IMG/VR virus record: IMGVR_UViG_3300026026_000059
Coordinates: 1-29,826 of that record
DNA length: 29,826 nt
Reading direction: 5' to 3' (one strand)
Source: a virus
Lineage: Duplodnaviria; Caudoviricetes
Notes under the pieces: generated by a model
What the model saw: the letters and a program-made list of their open reading frames with translations, nothing else
Databases searched by the model: none
What the model was told of the DNA's origin: nothing
Part shown: positions 15,649 through 29,826 of the stretch, in pieces
How positions within the stretch are numbered: position 1 is the stretch's first letter
Layout of the letters: every line of letters starts with the position of its first letter
Made by a program: the position numbers and the translations under genes

Positions 15649-16104
15649 ATGATAAAATTACTTTTGGTTTTTATTTTATTATTGTCAAGTTGTTCGAAAA
15701 AGGTCATCACCGAAGACGATATCGCTCTATCTTTACAGGCAATGGCTTCGAACAATGATTCCGTGATGGAATTTCCCGAAAAACAACCTGCAGTAATATC
15801 CATGGAGAAATTCAAAACTCTCGTTACCGTTTATTTCAAATTCGATTCCTATGAAATTCAAAAAAGTGAAGAATGGAAGATGTCAAATATTTCCCAACCA
15901 GTTGAACTCATAGGAGGGTGTTGCCCGATCGGGACTGACTATTACAATTACACCCTTGGATTGCACCGGGCAATGATTGTCAGAGAATACCTGAAAAATC
16001 GAGGCATTGAAATTATTACCTACAAATCAGTAGGTAAACGAAATTTGGTTACTGCTGATAGTAATGAATATGGTCTCAATCGAAGATGCGAAATAAGGTA
16101 CTGA
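15649..16104 (+). CDS. OmpA/Pal-like peptidoglycan-binding lipoprotein
   Basis: Lipobox LLSS-C; OmpA_C-like motifs VYFKFDS, G..YNYTLGLHRA..VREYL and NRRCEI. Confidence 0.85.
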   Translation: MIKLLLVFILLLSSCSKKVITEDDIALSLQAMASNNDSVMEFPEKQPAVISMEKFKTLVTVYFKFDSYEIQKSEEWKMSNISQPVELIGGCCPIGTDYYNYTLGLHRAMIVREYLKNRGIEIITYKSVGKRNLVTADSNEYGLNRRCEIRY

Positions 16105-17506: not shown

Positions 17507-18480
17507 TGAACAATAGAATCATATTGTCGTTATTCGTGATTTCCCTTACGGCAACGTTTTTTTGCTTTAGTCGTCAGACAGTGTGTTTGAATAACGAAAT
17601 GCAATTCCAATTCAAAACGCAATGTTTCCTCTCTTTCGACGCGGGAGGATTGCCGTTATACCAGGAGAAGGTTCGCCCGGCGTGGAGAGGTCGGTTGTTT
17701 TCCAATGGAATGGCGAACGTGTTCATGTCAATATTAAAAGTAAATCCCGAGATCGTTCGAAGTGCAAAAATAGCCCTTAAAGATTTCAACCGTTTTGCCG
17801 ACACGGTTGCCGCATGGAATACACTTTGGTTTATTGCGTCTTTCCTGCTTATAATTAAGTTGTCAAAAAATAAACCTGTCGCAGTGTTCGGGGTATTTGC
17901 ATGCATGATGTACGCCTTTACTCCTCGGGCAGACAACCTCATTCAGCCATGGGATGGACCGGCATTGTTTTTCTATTCCTTGATAATTGGGTTATCTCTT
18001 TCCAGAAATAGAAAATGGATCGCCGTGATTATTCCTTTGGCGGTAGGATTCAAAGAAACGGCGCTCGTACTTGCATTCCTTCCGTTGTTCTGGTCGGAAT
18101 GGAACCTCAACCGGAGATTGGTTTTTTCGGCTTTGATTATTTCTTTTGGGGTATCGGTAAAAATTGTACTTGATGCAATCTCGGGATGTCCTATACCTTT
18201 TCTCACAATGCAGACTCACTATGATACGATAAATCGATTTCATCATTATTGGTCAATAGCCCAAAATGTCGATTTTTTATTAATTCCGTCTATAAATCAC
18301 CCGTTATTCGCAATAGGCGGATTGTTGATGATCATTTTTGGTTCGCCACTTTGTCGAGGATTTAAAACGATAGCGGTGATTCATATTGCTGGAATTTTCA
18401 TGTTCTGCATAATCAATGAATCCCGTCTTTTTCAGGAACTTATTCCATTATACTTTTTAGGATTAAAAAATGAACGATGA
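17500..18480 (+). CDS. Polytopic membrane protein, possibly GT-C-fold glycosyltransferase-like
   Basis: About 8-9 hydrophobic segments with conserved-looking polar loop motifs (RPAWRGR, QPWD, KET, ESR). Confidence 0.55.
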   Translation: MVMNNRIILSLFVISLTATFFCFSRQTVCLNNEMQFQFKTQCFLSFDAGGLPLYQEKVRPAWRGRLFSNGMANVFMSILKVNPEIVRSAKIALKDFNRFADTVAAWNTLWFIASFLLIIKLSKNKPVAVFGVFACMMYAFTPRADNLIQPWDGPALFFYSLIIGLSLSRNRKWIAVIIPLAVGFKETALVLAFLPLFWSEWNLNRRLVFSALIISFGVSVKIVLDAISGCPIPFLTMQTHYDTINRFHHYWSIAQNVDFLLIPSINHPLFAIGGLLMIIFGSPLCRGFKTIAVIHIAGIFMFCIINESRLFQELIPLYFLGLKNER

Positions 18481-19264
18481 ACGCCTTTCCGATCCGGCAT
18501 ACTATTTTCCCTTTTGCGCGCTTGCGGCTCATTATAAAGAGGGCGCGTTTATCGAGGATGCGATTTTAGATCCTCATCATGGATGGCTACCTGGGGCAAC
18601 AGTACATCGTTTCTGGCATGAGGAAACGCTCGACTTCTCCTATGCGATCGAACATGGTGGTTGGCTACTGATCGTCAGCCTTGGGACCGAGGGGGGGCTT
18701 TTTGGTCCCGGATGGAAATCTGACCTTTCCCCGCAGATCGAAATGCCGGAATTTAAAAAACTCGGTGGCCACGTTGATTTCATTCAGGCGGGGCAACGTG
18801 TTGCAGATCATTTCCGAGACCTGATAATTGCATACGGTATGACTGTTGTTCAGATCGGCCATTCCCGGGGGGCTGCGGAAGCCATTGCTGGGGCGTGGAG
18901 GATCAATAGGCTTGGAGGCGATCTTCCGTCCCGGGTGATCTCCTACTGCGGTCCAGCGGTGTTTGATCACGAAACGTCCGATGTCTATGATAAGAGCGGT
19001 CTCGGCGGAGCCACAATCAGAATGACCATGCACCATGATCCGGTAGATCTTGCCGGGCTGCCGTTTTTAAAACACGTCGGAACCGAATTACCAATGCCGA
19101 ATATCGAGACAACCGCGGAAAAAGCGCATGGTATCGTCGGTCAAATTGCCTATGGTCACGCCTACTCGAGCGTTTTCGAATGCCTGATCGAATACCATAA
19201 ACAACGCGGAGAATTGAGAGAGGTGAAATACCTCGAAGATAGAAAGTGGGTTTGTACGGTATGA
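18470..19264 (+). CDS. Class-3 lipase-like alpha/beta hydrolase
   Basis: Nucleophile elbow GHSRG, oxyanion-type 'SLGTE', 'GHVDF', acid 'DPV' and His in 'GHAY'. Confidence 0.85.
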   Translation: MNDERLSDPAYYFPFCALAAHYKEGAFIEDAILDPHHGWLPGATVHRFWHEETLDFSYAIEHGGWLLIVSLGTEGGLFGPGWKSDLSPQIEMPEFKKLGGHVDFIQAGQRVADHFRDLIIAYGMTVVQIGHSRGAAEAIAGAWRINRLGGDLPSRVISYCGPAVFDHETSDVYDKSGLGGATIRMTMHHDPVDLAGLPFLKHVGTELPMPNIETTAEKAHGIVGQIAYGHAYSSVFECLIEYHKQRGELREVKYLEDRKWVCTV

Positions 19265-24049: not shown

Positions 24050-24421
24050 TTACTCCTTGTCCAATTTAGAATCACAGCGTCCATCAAAATGTGTTCGCGG
24101 ATATGCGAAGTGCCGTTTGATAATATCGATAATTTTACGACCATGAACAGAATCACTTGAGTAATGAATAAACTTCAAAACTTCATCGGAGCATTTGGTT
24201 GGAGAATGCGCACTGTTAAATTTTTCTTCTTCTACGGCTCGACACCGAAGTGCGCAAAGAAGAAAATCAGCCAGTTTGAATTGTTCAACTATTTCGTCAC
24301 GATACCGATCTTCCTGACCGTTATACTTCGTAACTTGCGGAAAGAAAAATAAAAATCCACTTAAGTCACGAATCCCATATGGTTTATTATTCTTGTAAAT
24401 AACTTCTAACTTCACATGCAT
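24050..24421 (-). CDS. Hypothetical protein (decayed cassette gene)
   Basis: Likely start MHVKLEV after GGAG; C-terminus passes through an attC-like remnant. Confidence 0.55.
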   Translation of the reverse strand: MHVKLEVIYKNNKPYGIRDLSGFLFFFPQVTKYNGQEDRYRDEIVEQFKLADFLLCALRCRAVEEEKFNSAHSPTKCSDEVLKFIHYSSDSVHGRKIIDIIKRHFAYPRTHFDGRCDSKLDKE

Positions 24422-25218: not shown

Positions 25219-25476
25219 TTACGAGCAGCATTTCTTACAACGTTTGACGCTACCGTCCGTCCGTTCCTTAATTTCCTCCGCCTCCATTCCGAGAATTATT
25301 TTACCATTCTTGCGATATGCGGTAAGGTTAATACAATCCAGATGAATTTGTAAAGCTTCACAAATATTGCCATCCTCTGTTCCATGAATTGCGACTAATA
25401 CAGGCGGCTTATCGTCCACCGTTCCACAAATAGGGCACGGTGCGCCAGATTGATTAAAATGCTCGAAAGTTCTCAT
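25219..25476 (-). CDS. Small zinc-binding hypothetical protein
   Basis: MRTFEHF start with AAGGGG RBS; CPIC...HLDC. Confidence 0.65.
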   Translation of the reverse strand: MRTFEHFNQSGAPCPICGTVDDKPPVLVAIHGTEDGNICEALQIHLDCINLTAYRKNGKIILGMEAEEIKERTDGSVKRCKKCCS

Positions 25477-25530
25477 ATTTTCCCCTTCTTGGCTGCGGCT
25501 ATAATATATGGTTTTCATTTGCCATAGTGC

Positions 25531-25671
25531 ACCTATCGTGCTCACAAATGTGTGCAGTGCTGGCGGCTCCCGATGAAAGGAATGCCCCCTGAGTAATCGC
25601 GGCAGTTACTTAAGCCACACCGTACTTGCTCAATGGTATACCGCCAGCATTGAACACTTTGCGCGTTGCGT
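25531..25671 (+). repeat. attC-like site A (left core mutated, ACCTATC)
   Basis: gtgct-cacaaatgtgtgcagtgctggcgg ... ccgccagcattgaacactttgcg-c-GTTGCGT; arms resemble site H. Confidence 0.65.
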
Positions 25672-25699
25672 ACTGCGGCTGTTAGTTGTATGTTTGCGG

Positions 25700-25933
25700 C
25701 TACTCCGCATTACCTTTCGTTTCCGACAATGTAACGGAACCGAAAAAATCCTCGAACGCATTCTCAACCCAAGAACAAGAATGTTCTCCACGACTATAAG
25801 GTGACTGCCCTGGATCAATAACGGTGCCGGTAAAAGGTCTGGTAAATAGTACAACCTGAGAAAGTTTGGTGAAAATCTTAAGCCTCGGATATTTCTGCTG
25901 ATCCGATTCACGACACACTGTTACTTTAAGCAT
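25700..25933 (-). CDS. Cassette-borne hypothetical protein
   Basis: AAGGAG RBS; flanked by GTTAGTT (25681) and AGCTAAC (25986). Confidence 0.7.
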   Translation of the reverse strand: MLKVTVCRESDQQKYPRLKIFTKLSQVVLFTRPFTGTVIDPGQSPYSRGEHSCSWVENAFEDFFGSVTLSETKGNAE

Positions 25934-25985
25934 AAAAGACTCCTTTTCTTATAAACGAACTATAATATGGTCAGCCGCAAATTGT

Positions 25986-26121
25986 AGCTAACGTCTATGC
26001 CACCACTTGCCGTGGCCGGAACATACACGGAAACCTGTTGTTGCATGACATTTTGTATACCCATACACAATCGGCCAGGGCGGGCATCCAGTGAGGGCAT
26101 GGCAAGCTGGCGTTGTTGGTG
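25986..26121 (+). repeat. attC-like site B
   Basis: AGCTAAC ... tgccaccacttgcc ... ggcaagctggcg ... GTTGGTG. Confidence 0.65.
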
Positions 26122-26148
26122 GATGCGGAAGGAGCGGATTCCACCAGT

Positions 26149-26196
26149 ACTGAACGTGTTGTGCAATGCGTGGCGTTTCCAATGCCATTCTTATAC
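26149..26196 (+). repeat. Degenerate attC-like site C
   Basis: ACTGAAC-gtgtt ... tggcg/tgcca hairpin ... CTTATAC; right arm truncated. Confidence 0.4.
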
Positions 26197-26391
26197 ACTT
26201 TTGGTCAACTTTCCTACAGGCTCTTTTTTGGCCCGTATTGTTTTGGCGCAGGACGCGCCTCGTTGATTTATCCACTCCTGCAACGCCAAGCGCACCTGAC
26301 CTGCAAAAGTGCGCTGCTCGGACTCTGAAATGATTTCGAGCTTTTTCTTGATCTCGGTTTCAATCCTGATTTTTATTACCTCGTTTTTCAT
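26191..26391 (-). CDS. Arc/ribbon-helix-helix DNA-binding protein (copy 1)
   Basis: 'VIKIRIETEIKKKLEIISESEQRTFAGQVRLAL' matches the Arc-like RHH pattern. Confidence 0.8.
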   Translation of the reverse strand: MKNEVIKIRIETEIKKKLEIISESEQRTFAGQVRLALQEWINQRGASCAKTIRAKKEPVGKLTKSV

Positions 26392-26432
26392 AAATTTTCC
26401 ATGTGGTTACTGTTCTGTTTATCTATATATTA

Positions 26433-26462
26433 AATATAACCACAAAACACAACCAAAGTCAA
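26433..26462 (-). promoter_or_regulatory. Sigma70-type promoter of RHH cassette 1
   Basis: TTGACT-18 nt-TATATT on the - strand; near-identical to the promoter at 29588-29616. Confidence 0.7.
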
Positions 26463-26544
26463 CAATTATTTTCATTTTCTTGCCCGGCATGACTCCGGGC
26501 TGTCCTGCCGCCGCTCTATAATTTCCAAAAACGGCCAGCATTGC

Positions 26545-26686
26545 AAACAACGTGCTCTCAATATACGCTGGAAAGAGGGCTTACCCACGCCCAGAAATAA
26601 ACCTATCTTGCGCATTTTACCTTTCGGTAAGGCGTCACTTTTTTCATTGCGCTGCCCTCTTTCTTGCGTATATTGTCGTGTTGTAT
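26545..26686 (+). repeat. attC-like site D
   Basis: AAACAAC-gtgct-ctcaatatacgctggaaagagggc ... gccctctttcttgcgtatattgtcg-t-GTTGTAT. Confidence 0.8.
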
Positions 26687-26776
26687 ATTGTTTGACAAGA
26701 CTTCCGCATTATCACGCGCGGCATCCATAGCTTCGTAATGAATAAAAATTTCTTCCAGTTCATAATTAAACTTCAT
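26603..26776 (-). CDS. Small cassette ORF (start uncertain)
   Basis: MKFNYELEE...; reads into the loop of site D. Confidence 0.4.
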   Translation of the reverse strand: MKFNYELEEIFIHYEAMDAARDNAEVLSNNIQHDNIRKKEGSAMKKVTPYRKVKCAR

Positions 26777-26829
26777 ATCAAATTTCTGTTTATTGCCGCG
26801 CCTACAATCCCTAGAATTTTCCACATTTC

Positions 26830-26965
26830 CTCCAACGTCTTGCTAAACGGCGGATAGTTGCCGCAGCTTGACGTACTGCTGATAACTGATAACACATATG
26901 CCCCCACGAGTATTAACAAACGCATCATTAAGAACAGAGGCAATTTCAGCCTTTAGCTGTTGGCT
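26830..26965 (+). repeat. attC-like site E
   Basis: CTCCAAC-gtctt-gctaaa[c]ggcggatagttgc ... gcaatttcagcctttagc-t-GTTGGCT. Confidence 0.8.
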
Positions 26966-27076
26966 GTATGTTGCGGGCGACTCCCCTTGTTCCGAGGCGC
27001 ACGGGGGATATGCAAACCTACCGTAAACCTCAAAACACGCTTGCTTTAAATCACAATTTACTTTATCGCACGGCAT
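26843..27076 (-). CDS. Small Cys-containing cassette protein
   Basis: MPCDKVNC after a GGAGG RBS; about half the ORF is encoded by site E. Confidence 0.6.
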   Translation of the reverse strand: MPCDKVNCDLKQACFEVYGRFAYPPCASEQGESPATYSQQLKAEIASVLNDAFVNTRGGICVISYQQYVKLRQLSAV

Positions 27077-27112
27077 AGCGCCTCCTATAATCGTGATCTC
27101 GCCCGCTATTTC

Positions 27113-27200
27113 CGGCAACGTTCACCGTACAGCCGAAGCTGGCGACTATAATTAACCTTCTACAGCTAACTTCGCCAGTTTTGGCTTGCGGCTGTTGTGT
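27113..27200 (+). repeat. attC-like site F
   Basis: CGGCAAC ... ccgta[c]agccgaagctggcga ... tcgccagttttggcttgcggc-t-GTTGTGT. Confidence 0.8.
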
Positions 27201-27403
27201 GATCGTTTGGCAACCTTCCGCTGTCTTTGGGGCGGCTTCGTGATGCACAGCGTATATGAGTCGGCGGAGTTCCTAATCATTTCGTACCTTGTAAACTTGC
27301 TTGGAGTCACCAACAACTCTAAAAACGCCTTTTCGGAGTCGTTATCTCCATCTAAATACAGGCATACAAAATCCTCGCCGACATCACCAATTGTACTTTC
27401 CAT
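27152..27403 (-). CDS. Cassette-borne hypothetical protein
   Basis: 83 aa with an AGGGG RBS; ends in the loop of site F. Confidence 0.6.
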   Translation of the reverse strand: MESTIGDVGEDFVCLYLDGDNDSEKAFLELLVTPSKFTRYEMIRNSADSYTLCITKPPQRQRKVAKRSHNSRKPKLAKLAVEG

Positions 27404-27439
27404 AGCCGCCCCTACAATTCAAAATGTTTACAAAATGTT

Positions 27440-27503
27440 ATACAACGTGTTGCGAAACGGTTGATCGTGCGGCTTTGCACATGTCAACCTTTCGCTGTTA
27501 TGG
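27440..27503 (+). repeat. attC-like site G
   Basis: ATACAAC-gtgtt-gcgaaa[c]ggttga ... tcaacctttcgc-t-GTTATGG; body nearly identical to site K. Confidence 0.85.
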
Positions 27504-27810
27504 GAAGTTTGGCCGATTCCATAGCTTCCAGTCGCGCCCACTTTCGTGATAAATCCAATGCTGATTTAGCACGATCGAGGCTTTTTTGCAACGATAATAC
27601 ATTAGCCTCGCACTTGGCTATAAGTGCATCGGAGGCACTTTCGATTGTGGCAAAGCAATCACACTTTCGCCAAGTTGACTCGCGTTTGCTCCATTCTGGG
27701 CTACCCCACGGCGACCACTCAAAAACCTTGTATTGCTTTGCCGTCTCAGAAGAAACTAAACCGCGAACCATTTCGATTGAACGGTAAGAACTTAACTTAT
27801 AAACAATCAC
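27484..27810 (-). CDS. Cassette-borne hypothetical protein
   Basis: GTG start with AAGGAG RBS; C-terminal coiled coil; stop codon inside site G. Confidence 0.7.
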   Translation of the reverse strand: MIVYKLSSYRSIEMVRGLVSSETAKQYKVFEWSPWGSPEWSKRESTWRKCDCFATIESASDALIAKCEANVLSLQKSLDRAKSALDLSRKWARLEAMESAKLPITAKG

Positions 27811-27861
27811 AAAAGCTCCTTTGAAATGCGCGACATATAATTTAGGACTCGGCCAAATTTT

Positions 27862-27996
27862 CTATAACGTGCTCGCAAATGTAAGTAGTGTCCGGGCACT
27901 CGTGAGTCACGATACGCCCACATTAAGTGCTTTACCGTGCGGCCACCTTAACGAGATCGGCACAGGCCCGGACATTGCTTACTTTGCGTGTTATTG
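27862..27996 (+). repeat. attC-like site H
   Basis: CTATAAC-gtgct-cgcaaa[t]gtaagtagtgtccgggc ... gcccggacattgcttactttgcg-t-GTTATTG. Confidence 0.85.
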
Positions 27997-28022
27997 GCAC
28001 GTAAATTTTTCTACCTTAGTGT

Positions 28023-28107
28023 AGTGCGCGGTTTGATTTGAACAAACACCTCTCGCTTTTGGGTACTTAAACCCTTGCCGAGCGTACTTCCGATATACGA
28101 CGCGCAC
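28023..28107 (-). ncRNA. tRNA-like RNA with expanded anticodon arm, sole cargo of a cassette
   Basis: GTGCGCG/CGCGCAC acceptor stem, T8, D arm GTAT-ATCGGAA-GTAC, stem CTCG/CGAG enclosing an oversized loop with a GGGT-TTAAGT-ACCC hairpin, variable loop AGGT and T arm GTTTG-TTCAAAT-CAAAC. Confidence 0.75.
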
Positions 28108-28135
28108 ATATAATATAAAAGAACAAATTTATTGA

Positions 28136-28217
28136 CTATAACGGGACCGGCAATGCACGAAGGCCGGTACGACCGCTTATTGTTTTCTATCCGGCTTTTG
28201 TGCTTGCCGTGTTAGGC
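28136..28217 (+). repeat. attC-like site I
   Basis: CTATAAC-gggac-cggcaa[t]gcacgaaggccgg ... ccggcttttgtgcttgccg-t-GTTAGGC. Confidence 0.9.
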
Positions 28218-28235
28218 GAAGTTTTTCACCCTTCC

Positions 28236-28568
28236 CTAACCTATTGTCAAAATGGCGGGATTAACAACGCCGCCATTTGATTTTTTTTTGGAAACGCCAT
28301 GATCGCTATTCCACTTATTCCGAAATTCTTCGCCGCGCGAATGGACCTTTGAAATGATGTTCGCTACACAACCGGCCATAAATCCAGTTATACCACCGGC
28401 CTTTGATTCGTCATCTGCGCGGCAGATAAGAGTGTGACAGTCAAAGTCACCAAGCTCATTATCAAGAATCTCCATTGCGCGGCGAGCTACCATAATGGCG
28501 GCGTTTCCATAAGGATCGGTATTGGCGGCGACGCACTTATCCCAACCTTCTTTATCAACAATAGCCAT
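28236..28568 (-). CDS. Cassette-borne hypothetical protein
   Basis: Start MAIVDKEGW after GGAGG; the longer ORF-track start lies inside site J. Confidence 0.75.
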   Translation of the reverse strand: MAIVDKEGWDKCVAANTDPYGNAAIMVARRAMEILDNELGDFDCHTLICRADDESKAGGITGFMAGCVANIISKVHSRGEEFRNKWNSDHGVSKKKSNGGVVNPAILTIG

Positions 28569-28601
28569 TTTGACCTCCAAAATAAAGGGGTGAAAAATTT
28601 T

Positions 28602-28665
28602 GCCTAACGTGTTGCTAAACGTGTGTTCGTTTGGCTTTGCAAATGACACACTTTAGCTGTTAGCG
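28602..28665 (+). repeat. attC-like site J
   Basis: GCCTAAC-gtgtt-gctaaa[c]gtgtgt ... acacactttagc-t-GTTAGCG. Confidence 0.9.
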
Positions 28666-28973
28666 GCAGTAGTTTTTACTACCGCATTAAAACTTTTCGC
28701 GAACTCAATAGACTTTTGAAGAACGAGCAATGACCGTTCCGCGTCTTCGGTTGCTGAATGCAATTCGTCCGACGGAGTGATAACAGCTCGAATAGAATCA
28801 ACCACGTTCTTTGCACCATCGCCGCTTAGTTCCCATTCAACATCGTGAAGCGCCTTTGCCACTTTTATAAGGTGCTTACCGAAGGCACTGAACTGCGGGT
28901 TAGAATGACCTACGAGCTGCGACGCCGCATCTTGAACATTAGAATATACGTAATTCAACGAACCCCCGGACAT
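28653..28973 (-). CDS. Cassette-borne hypothetical protein (MSGGSLNY... type)
   Basis: AAGGTGG RBS; stop codon in the arm of site J. Confidence 0.75.
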   Translation of the reverse strand: MSGGSLNYVYSNVQDAASQLVGHSNPQFSAFGKHLIKVAKALHDVEWELSGDGAKNVVDSIRAVITPSDELHSATEDAERSLLVLQKSIEFAKSFNAVVKTTAANS

Positions 28974-29025
28974 AGTAACCACCTTTCTTGTGAGCGAAAC
29001 TATAATTAAAAGTAAAGTTTATTGC

Positions 29026-29089
29026 CGCTAACGGGACGCGAAACAGTTGATCGTGCGGCTTTGCACATGTCAACCTTTCGCTGTTATAC
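29026..29089 (+). repeat. attC-like site K
   Basis: CGCTAAC-gggac-gcgaaa[c]agttga ... tcaacctttcgc-t-GTTATAC. Confidence 0.9.
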
Positions 29090-29284
29090 GCTTTTAGTCA
29101 ACTTTCCTATAGGCTCTTTTTTGGCCTGTATTGTCTTGGCGCAGGACGCGCCTCTTTGGTTTATCCACTCTTGCAACGCCAGACGTACCTGTCCTGCAAA
29201 GGTACGCTGCTCGGATTCTGCAATAGATTCGAGCGCCTTCTTGATCTTGGTTTCAATCCGAATTTTGATTACTTCGGTTTTCAT
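29084..29284 (-). CDS. Arc/ribbon-helix-helix DNA-binding protein (copy 2)
   Basis: MKTEVIKIRIETKIKKALESIAESEQRTFAGQVRLAL; close paralogue of 26191-26391; stop codon lies in the core box of site K. Confidence 0.8.
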   Translation of the reverse strand: MKTEVIKIRIETKIKKALESIAESEQRTFAGQVRLALQEWINQRGASCAKTIQAKKEPIGKLTKSV

Positions 29285-29285
29285 T

Positions 29286-29546
29286 TCACATATCCCGCGC
29301 AAACGCCCTGATACCATCACGTATTTTTGCGTCATCAATCCGAGTATCCATACACTCATAAGCGCCATCGGAATTTAACCAAAACTCGACCATCCCACCC
29401 TGCCCCTGCCAATCAGGAATAGCGTAATGGCACAAAGATTTATTTTTTCTTTCTTCCCTTGCGTTTTGTTCTTCACGCGCCTCTTTTTGGGCCTGTGCAA
29501 ACTCATCATCCGAAAGATGGCCGAAAATTTCATTTCTTATATTCAT
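29286..29546 (-). CDS. Hypothetical protein co-transcribed with RHH copy 2
   Basis: MNIRNEIF start after AAGGGG; its stop codon is 1 nt from the RHH start. Confidence 0.65.
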   Translation of the reverse strand: MNIRNEIFGHLSDDEFAQAQKEAREEQNAREERKNKSLCHYAIPDWQGQGGMVEFWLNSDGAYECMDTRIDDAKIRDGIRAFARDM

Positions 29547-29587
29547 TTTGCATCCCCTTGGTTTGTGGTTTCTTTTCTTACTATTTA

Positions 29588-29616
29588 AATATACCACAAA
29601 GTACAACCAAAGTCAA
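29588..29616 (-). promoter_or_regulatory. Sigma70-type promoter of RHH cassette 2
   Basis: TTGACT-17 nt-TATATT with TG upstream of the -10 box and an AT-rich UP-like tract. Confidence 0.75.
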
Positions 29617-29723
29617 CAATTAATTTATTTATTTTTAATTTTCTTTTTTTTCGGTTTTGTTGCCCAGGACGGGCAACTTTTGTCTTGGGCCAAAAACTAT
29701 AACATAAAAAGTTGACTAATTGC

Positions 29724-29779
29724 GTATAACGGCCCCGCGCACAGCCGATCGTTTTAATGTCGGCTTGCGCGTGTTAGCC
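29724..29779 (+). repeat. attC-like site L
   Basis: GTATAAC-ggccc-cgcgca[c]agccga ... tcggcttgcgcg-t-GTTAGCC. Confidence 0.9.
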
Positions 29780-29826
29780 GATGTAAACTGGCCTTCCTAA
29801 ATTTCCGCCGCAACAGGCTCGTATGT

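Follow-up and report, generated by a model that had tools for sequence, protein, structure and literature searches.

Hairpin-bounded gene cassettes of an integron-like array are gained, lost and reordered between strains of a wetland phage

A cassette array at the right end of the phage contig

We analysed a stretch of 29,826 nucleotides (nt), the single viral record IMGVR_UViG_3300026026_000059 (Caudoviricetes), hereafter the window, whose coordinates are used for all sites and genes. A structural module with portal, SU10-type major capsid and head closure genes occupies positions 1 to 22102 of the + strand, and small genes on the - strand follow up to the contig end. At this right end lies an array of gene cassettes, and from strain to strain these appear, disappear or change order exactly at hairpin-bounded sites. 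The runs holding at least half of the sampled words of the window were wetland metagenomes, with smaller shares in soil metagenomes.

A strict hairpin scan of the whole window on both strands returned seven hairpins, all on the + strand between 26830 and 29779, and looser scans added sites G, I and K as well as decayed sites down to 24.1 kb (Table 1). An Rfam search of the window gave a single chance match and nothing more. Read on the + strand, a site consists of ATT-N6-AAC, a G with about 4 unpaired nt, a 6-bp stem, one unpaired C or T, an inner stem and T-GTT-N6-WGT. The spacer is of the 5/1 or 4/1 type, with the bulge and the single C/T both on the AAC arm. Among 50 curated sites from this and other phages, a G follows AAC in 48 and a T precedes GTT in 49. 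The gene-antisense strand was predicted to fold better in 42 of them and the other strand in 7; at site A, the + strand is this folding ('bottom') strand. In the outer arms, G.T pairs were counted 26 times versus 9 for A.C (the count has some non-adjacent pairs and one cassette twice), and a strand-neutral scan gave an asymmetry of +3/+4 in 42 of 100 candidates and of -3/-4 in 3.

These features were compared with those of integron attC sites. In canonical attC sites each spacer arm has 5-6 nt and the extrahelical bases lie opposite AAC (PMC5027507); neither feature was found in the sites described here. The GTTRRRY core is likewise absent: the first R is present in 50/50 sites and the second in 21/50, only one of ten window boxes fits, and the core reads GTT-R-N3-G-N-WGT. 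Shared with attC are the AAC/GTT crossover triplet, the complementarity between the boxes of one cassette, and the folding of the gene-antisense strand with its G.T bias. Since both features of attC geometry failed, we describe the sites as working like attC but do not file them as attC.

The two ends of each cassette pair with each other

The initial annotation had proposed that core boxes flanking one gene pair better than the two boxes of one hairpin. All box words that it quoted were found in place, and the pairs that it named were as claimed: 7/7 for B/A, 10/10 for C/B (nine Watson-Crick pairs and one G.T), 7/7 for D/C, 6/7 for E/D, F/E and G/F, and a complete pair with three G.T for 25681/25983. 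The match within a hairpin is indeed weaker, with 4-5/7 at the four right-most sites. Two weaker consecutive pairs had been omitted (26680/26830 and 26959/27113, 5/7 each). When the permutation check was run with these counted in, same-cassette boxes still beat shuffled pairing: with four variable core positions per cassette, 25 of 32 positions pair across the 8 consecutive cassettes I to A, versus a permutation mean of 12.75 (p=6/40320). Within one site of the window, 16 of 36 positions pair.

The result was replicated in a sister strain and in two other phages. In the sister contig L012 (42 kb, of which about 4 kb was unseen), whose backbone is 96-99% identical to the window and whose array is largely different, 40 of 48 positions pair versus 17.5 after shuffling, a value reached by 0 of 200000 shuffles. 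With six positions per cassette, the counts were 42/60 versus 23.9 in phage G012 (5 of 200000 shuffles) and 46/54 versus 29.0 in phage G011 (1 of 200000). Over 36 distinct cassettes, own-end pairing exceeded shuffled pairing to 18-20 nt past the triplet and was at background from 21; positions 10-24 alone were not matched by any of 100000 within-phage shuffles. The paired ends thus extend over 21-23 bp, and not over the 7 of the initial annotation. On the integrated single strand, GTT was predicted to pair with the distant AAC of the same cassette with P of at least 0.8 in 10 of 15 cassettes, and the closure probability of the hairpin was at most 0.16 in all 15 (equilibrium folding only). Core pairing is 4/4 at the right end and declines to 2/4 on the left, a gradient that would be expected of an array receiving its new cassettes beyond the right end.

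A TAYAA word is found 18-27 nt before ATT in 27 of 42 left flanks (in the window, for instance, at 29001-29007 and 29697-29703), where own-end pairing stops. It may be an antisense -10 box, a stop codon before the ribosome site, or an accessory binding site.

Cassettes move between strains

Public contigs from 7 runs were aligned for the strain comparison (X5, X7, X9 and X10 were left out, as were X11 and X12, which had small shares), and joints with short sides in run X6 were ignored as likely from other organisms. The strains differ by insertions/deletions (indels) of exactly 283 nt (X3, window cassette H-G) and 139 nt (X1, X2, X4 and X8), with further exact indels of 299 and 433 nt in X4 and X8. 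Each indel has the length computed from the sites and 4-6 shared nt whose overlap is the triplet, which is too short for assembly misjoins. The overlap of the shared words TAAC and AACG confines the crossover to the AAC/GTT triplet. These indels bear out the view of the initial annotation that the cassettes are mobile units rather than terminators, and on the gene strand none of the cassette hairpins is scored as a terminator.

The deleted units start just after the AAC of a site on the + (gene-antisense) strand, and hence the unit is a gene with its downstream hairpin, as in integrons; the same start rules out that a hairpin belongs to the gene downstream of it. Wherever L012 and the window share a flank or a hairpin, the sequences switch at AAC. 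X1 matches L012 over positions 1 to 2901 and continues with a different cassette straight after GTT, a junction that marks an attI-like head. This shared hairpin-less head site, located beyond the end of the window, has differing first cassettes, so that units of one orientation are seen inserted after it. Five heads were found, and all have AAC (AGC in L013, described below) followed by TA and no hairpin. The 299-nt cassette s13 lies nearer the head in X4 than in L012, behind 864 other letters. The cassette of site A runs off the contig end, and a 372-nt record beginning at site A has a depth of 24.3 versus 12.6 for the phage and two left flanks; this cassette is likely duplicated in the genome, with one copy at the head. 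Changes away from the sites are also present, namely deletions of 40 nt and 938 nt and an exchange between two Arc-like genes.

Recombinases without I2 at the heads of related arrays

The phage contig L013, which has a small terminase gene and a DUF5131 gene 82% identical, carries the same site family. Its head is located at the stop codon of a tyrosine recombinase of 277 amino acids (aa), which is co-oriented and has the invariant R-K-H-R-H-Y set. On TIGR02249 this enzyme scores 160.6 versus a cut-off of 265; IntI models matched it only in pieces, and it falls below all NCBIfam cut-offs. Compared with VchIntIA, some 40 residues are missing across the insertion, and the enzyme has no I2, the domain described as defining IntI and letting integrases recombine folded single strands (PMC7790495, bioRxiv 2022.02.06.479319). 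For XerC/D, an ability to recombine single-stranded substrates has been described (PMC5027507). The L013 enzyme resembles XerC, XerD and XerA (NF040815, TIGR02224/02225) in size, catalytic residues and the lack of I2, and its closest structural relatives by sequence are XerA structures (4A8E, 5HXY), but it lies below every curated cut-off, forms a clade of its own, and is found at a cassette array rather than at dif. The clade comprises about 45 proteins of 47-79% identity among the best 120 of 611 listed homologues. It was absent from the viral_contigs search, where the best match had 40% identity, and none of the same best 120 lies on the 42,008-nt sister contig, a weak hint of absence there.

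A second enzyme without I2, 35% identical to the first, lies in L260 next to an array that is similar but has its genes in the opposite orientation. Few records carry an enzyme, so the enzyme link draws on these two adjacent cases; we consider it likely that the cassette family and the I2-less enzyme belong together. As heads are kept in the enzyme-less phages G011 and G180, action in trans is likely the rule.

A short word, TATG..AAC, recurs in the heads 5-6 nt away from the triplet (L013 2120-2140, L195 about 4780, L260 4548-4565). The last cassette of L260 is empty and consists of two arms joined by a short loop.

Proposed mechanism and its alternatives

We interpret the locus as an integron-like cassette system that is carried by a phage and is not of the IntI kind; both the circles and the enzyme link are inferred. 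The right-end array is likely shuffled at AAC/GTT in the form of folded single-stranded circles by an I2-less Xer-like recombinase, which probably acts in trans. The recombinase would bind on either side of the asymmetric 5/1-nt loop, at the inner stem and at a 12-bp arm in which ATT-N6-AAC pairs with GTT-N6-WGT. One strand would be exchanged at AAC. With a G conserved behind AAC and a T ahead of GTT, the swapped end could anneal, and the junction would be resolved by replication. An excised circle would have a 21-23-bp outer stem and could re-enter at the head, giving rise to moves and duplications, while pairing would decay towards the old tail. The likely benefit is the sampling of accessory and counter-defence genes (Tad4-like, Acb2/Tad1-like, DNA methylases).

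Several observations weigh against this interpretation. No tyrosine recombinase was found in the window, in L001 or in L012 (about 4 kb of L012 unseen). A recombinase is present in only 2 of 15 viral records with sites (1 of the 5 whose completeness is 90% or more), and that of G185 lies about 17 kb from the sites. No self-closing cassette joint was seen in the contigs of the 7 runs, which drop rare forms; the initial annotation had each cassette integrating as a circle by crossover within GTT, of which the triplet crossover is upheld and the circle, not having been seen, would be the inferred part. Cassette I-H persists despite its poor pairing (2/4), and the 50 sites were curated by eye from scans favouring the folding strand. 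Some attC sites recombine without extrahelical bases (PMC5027507), and P12002L_attC2, from the same phage as a site that resembles ours (see below), was recombined by IntI1 (PMC9892861). Finally, a homologue of the capsid protein in a Ca. Latescibacteria bin led us to search this phylum, and 0 of 168 genomes had the enzyme clade or the site pattern, in a search run without a positive control and therefore uninformative as to the host.

Alternatively, an ordinary IntI of the host could move the cassettes, which would be attC cassettes of an atypical sort, as in phage clusters of attC sites lacking an integrase (CALINs), and the adjacent Xer-like genes would then be bystanders. The AAC/GTT triplet, the bottom-strand bias and the gene orientation are all as in integrons, most arrays have no enzyme of their own, and five of six phage sites were recombined by IntI1 (PMC9892861). 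However, the spacer is 5/1 rather than 5-6/5-6, the extra bases lie on the AAC arm and not opposite it, and an I2-less enzyme abuts the head in both L013 and L260. Moreover, the one of the six sites that IntI1 did not recombine, P12002L_attC1 (PMC9892861), is the sole published site of the present family: it has the same asymmetry and the same 11-nt loop as site A and sites of L013, L198 and L260. We therefore regard a host IntI as unlikely to be the agent.

Single-strand nucleases of the HUH type (IS200/IS605 or REP), or miniature elements with terminal inverted repeats, would account for the 21-23-bp inverted ends and the hairpin of each cassette and for the favoured single-strand folding. 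Such elements are very improbable here, since the hairpin lies inside the unit but outside the inverted ends, no target duplication was seen, insertion is at a fixed head, and two of the heads adjoin a tyrosine recombinase (no search was aimed at HUH genes). Lastly, the hairpins might be terminators or processing signals, with the strain differences produced by homologous or microhomology recombination through a phage exonuclease and Bet-like protein; L012 does encode a 5'-3' exonuclease with a Bet-like tail, and some of the changes (the 40-nt and 938-nt deletions and the Arc-like copy exchange) lie off the sites. Four indel classes and several swaps falling on one triplet with 4-6 shared nt speak against it, as does the lack of terminator scores; the own-end pairing (p <0.001, four phages) would also be left without a reason. 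This explanation is largely refuted, and we give it hardly any credence.

Beyond the shuffling by an I2-less enzyme that we favour, a wider hypothesis can be put forward tentatively, with the balance leaning slightly against it: a second kind of integron, in which many unrelated phages have only an array and a head, their cassettes being shuffled by the I2-less enzyme of a few phages or hosts, with counter-defence genes traded in this way. The own-end panhandle would pre-assemble the excision synapse and so replace I2 and the extrahelical bases.

Relation to integrons and phage CALINs

The array resembles integrons (PMC5027507, PMC8876359) in its tandem one-gene cassettes of one orientation with a hairpin after each, in the AAC/GTT crossover, in the G.T bias towards folding of the gene-antisense strand, in the hairpin-less insertion site at the head, and in moves and a likely duplication towards that head (compare PMC8024014). 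It differs from them in the 5/1 or 4/1 spacer versus 5-6 nt per arm, in having the unpaired bases of the folding strand on its AAC arm, in the core GTT-R-N3-G-N-WGT versus GTTRRRY, and in own-end pairing over 21-23 bp. Like a complete integron it has an attI-like head, beyond the end of the window; unlike one, no IntI with I2 adjoins the array, and the L013 and L260 enzymes lack the insertion.

Phage attC arrays have already been published: Qi et al. 2023 described 17 phage CALINs (PMC9892861), which are likewise phage arrays without integrase that carry DNA methylases. In the available part of that paper the sites are treated as IntI substrates and strain shuffling does not appear, whereas here shuffling is demonstrated in a strain series, and the site family is tied to a non-IntI enzyme. 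A literature search, covering few subscription journals, returned no paper on an I2-less or phage-run cassette system. What the locus adds is exact gain and loss, and one move, seen among four or more strains, together with an active head and a counter-defence gene as cargo, none of which site patterns by themselves can provide. It points to a programmed source of mosaicism in phage accessory genes, and it offers enzyme, head and sites as ready parts for an assay; if our interpretation is true, an integron-like array with differently built sites and an I2-less enzyme at its head would be a living test of how the innovation of I2 arose. Owing to the non-attC geometry of the sites, standard searches may miss such arrays.

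Distribution and cargo of the arrays

A looser site pattern was run over 20 of the 64 parts of viral_contigs and gave 120 loci (40 with short flanks only), of which 20 had at least one folded site and 9, on 8 contigs, two or more. Arrays were also found in a 467-kb provirus record and a 46-kb phage. Two narrow site patterns had no matches in viral_contigs, and a stricter form of the hairpin scan had none in 80 Xer-like viral loci (877,546 nt). None of 21 pattern loci from genome_contigs had an array, so no bacterial host was found. The capsid relatives G002 and G004 (complete) had no sites in the stretches scanned, and the array hence does not follow the virion genes.

Cassette D-C encodes, as judged by its sequence, a homologue of the anti-Thoeris protein Tad4. 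The product scores 36.9 bits versus a cut-off of 25 on Pfam PF25186, its residues 1-109 align to positions 1-111 of the 113 of the profile, and no PDB sequence matched it. Tad4 binds ThsB according to a review (PMC13728456). Among 88 open reading frames (ORFs) of other arrays there were 4 DNA methylases, one Acb2/Tad1 at the cut-off, one DUF3850 and 4 weak small domains; the other 78 matched nothing. A 360-aa radical SAM gene is carried as a cassette at L012 5563-6645.

Features of the array and its surroundings

The sites and cassettes of the window are listed in Table 1, where a cassette is named by its two sites.

Table 1. Sites, cassettes and relics in the right part of the window.
Feature	Position	Strand	Remarks
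Site A	29719..29784	+	outer arm ATT-N6-AAC (AAC 29728), hairpin, TGTT (GTT 29773)
Sigma-70-like promoter in cassette B-A	29588..29616	-	consensus match only; second copy 26462-26433
Cassette B-A (698 nt, 29030-29727), genes	29084..29540	-	ORF without assigned family and Arc-like ribbon-helix-helix repressor
Site B	29021..29094	+	AAC 29030, GTT 29083; hairpin nearly identical to site F
Cassette C-B (424 nt), gene	28653..28973	-	no family; reads into hairpin C
Site C	28597..28670	+	AAC 28606, GTT 28659
Cassette D-C (466 nt), gene	28236..28568	-	Tad4-like Thoeris inhibitor
Site D	28131..28222	+	AAC 28140, GTT 28211
Site E	27857..28001	+	AAC 27866, GTT 27990
Cassette F-E (422 nt), gene	27484..27810	-	weak PHROG match
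Site F	27435..27508	+	AAC 27444, GTT 27497; strain X3 diverges directly after 27447
Cassette G-F (327 nt), gene	27152-27403
Site G	27108..27205	+	AAC 27117, GTT 27194
Cassette H-G (283 nt), gene	26843-27070		precisely missing from strain X3
Site H	26825..26970	+	AAC 26834, GTT 26959
Cassette I-H (285 nt), gene	26603-26770		common to window and L012, with different neighbours
Site I	26540..26691	+	AAC 26549, GTT 26680
Decayed site and second Arc-like cassette	26153..26470	+	AAC 26153, CTT for GTT at 26190; gene 26191-26391 (-)
Site K	25981..26126	+	AAC 25990, GTT about 26115; near-empty decayed cassette next
Decayed site J	25526..25692	+	ATC for AAC at 25535; fused remnant to GTT 25681; gene 25700-25933 (-)
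Truncated site	25230..25260	+	AAC 25239; two further cassettes there in L012
Relic hairpin	24088..24217	+	inside ORF 24050-24400; loose ends in run X6

In cassette B-A a stop codon lies inside the box, and cassette E-D (274 nt) has no ORF of at least 50 aa between its sites on the gene strand. Strain X3 has about 289 extra nt at decayed site J. The ORF at 24050-24400 is a fixed tail gene in the window, and its homologue is a cassette gene in phage G012; tblastn matched it to L010 with 72% identity over 57 aa.

Two window cassettes have a consensus promoter of their own. These are the two diverged Arc-like repressor cassettes (26191-26470 and 29084-29620), of which X3 has a hybrid. Hairpins are near-identical at 27444-27499 and 29030-29085, and the hairpin of site A (29728-29775) is identical to that at L012 4204-4157, in each case with different genes; like hairpins with unlike genes may hint at how cassettes arise. 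In many cassettes the gene continues through its own hairpin (window 26843-27070, L012 5233-5544, L009 4839-5087, L222 3553-3858), and unrelated proteins consequently share the hairpin-encoded C-terminal peptide QQLKAEIA, often followed by LRQLSAV or similar.

Outside the array, weak matches were obtained in the late region to an OmpA-like lipoprotein (15649-16104) and a lipase-3-like gene (18470-19264). The capsid relative G004, which has no cassette array, encodes a long Gly-Ser/Tyr-Gly repeat protein (L006 16280-16657).

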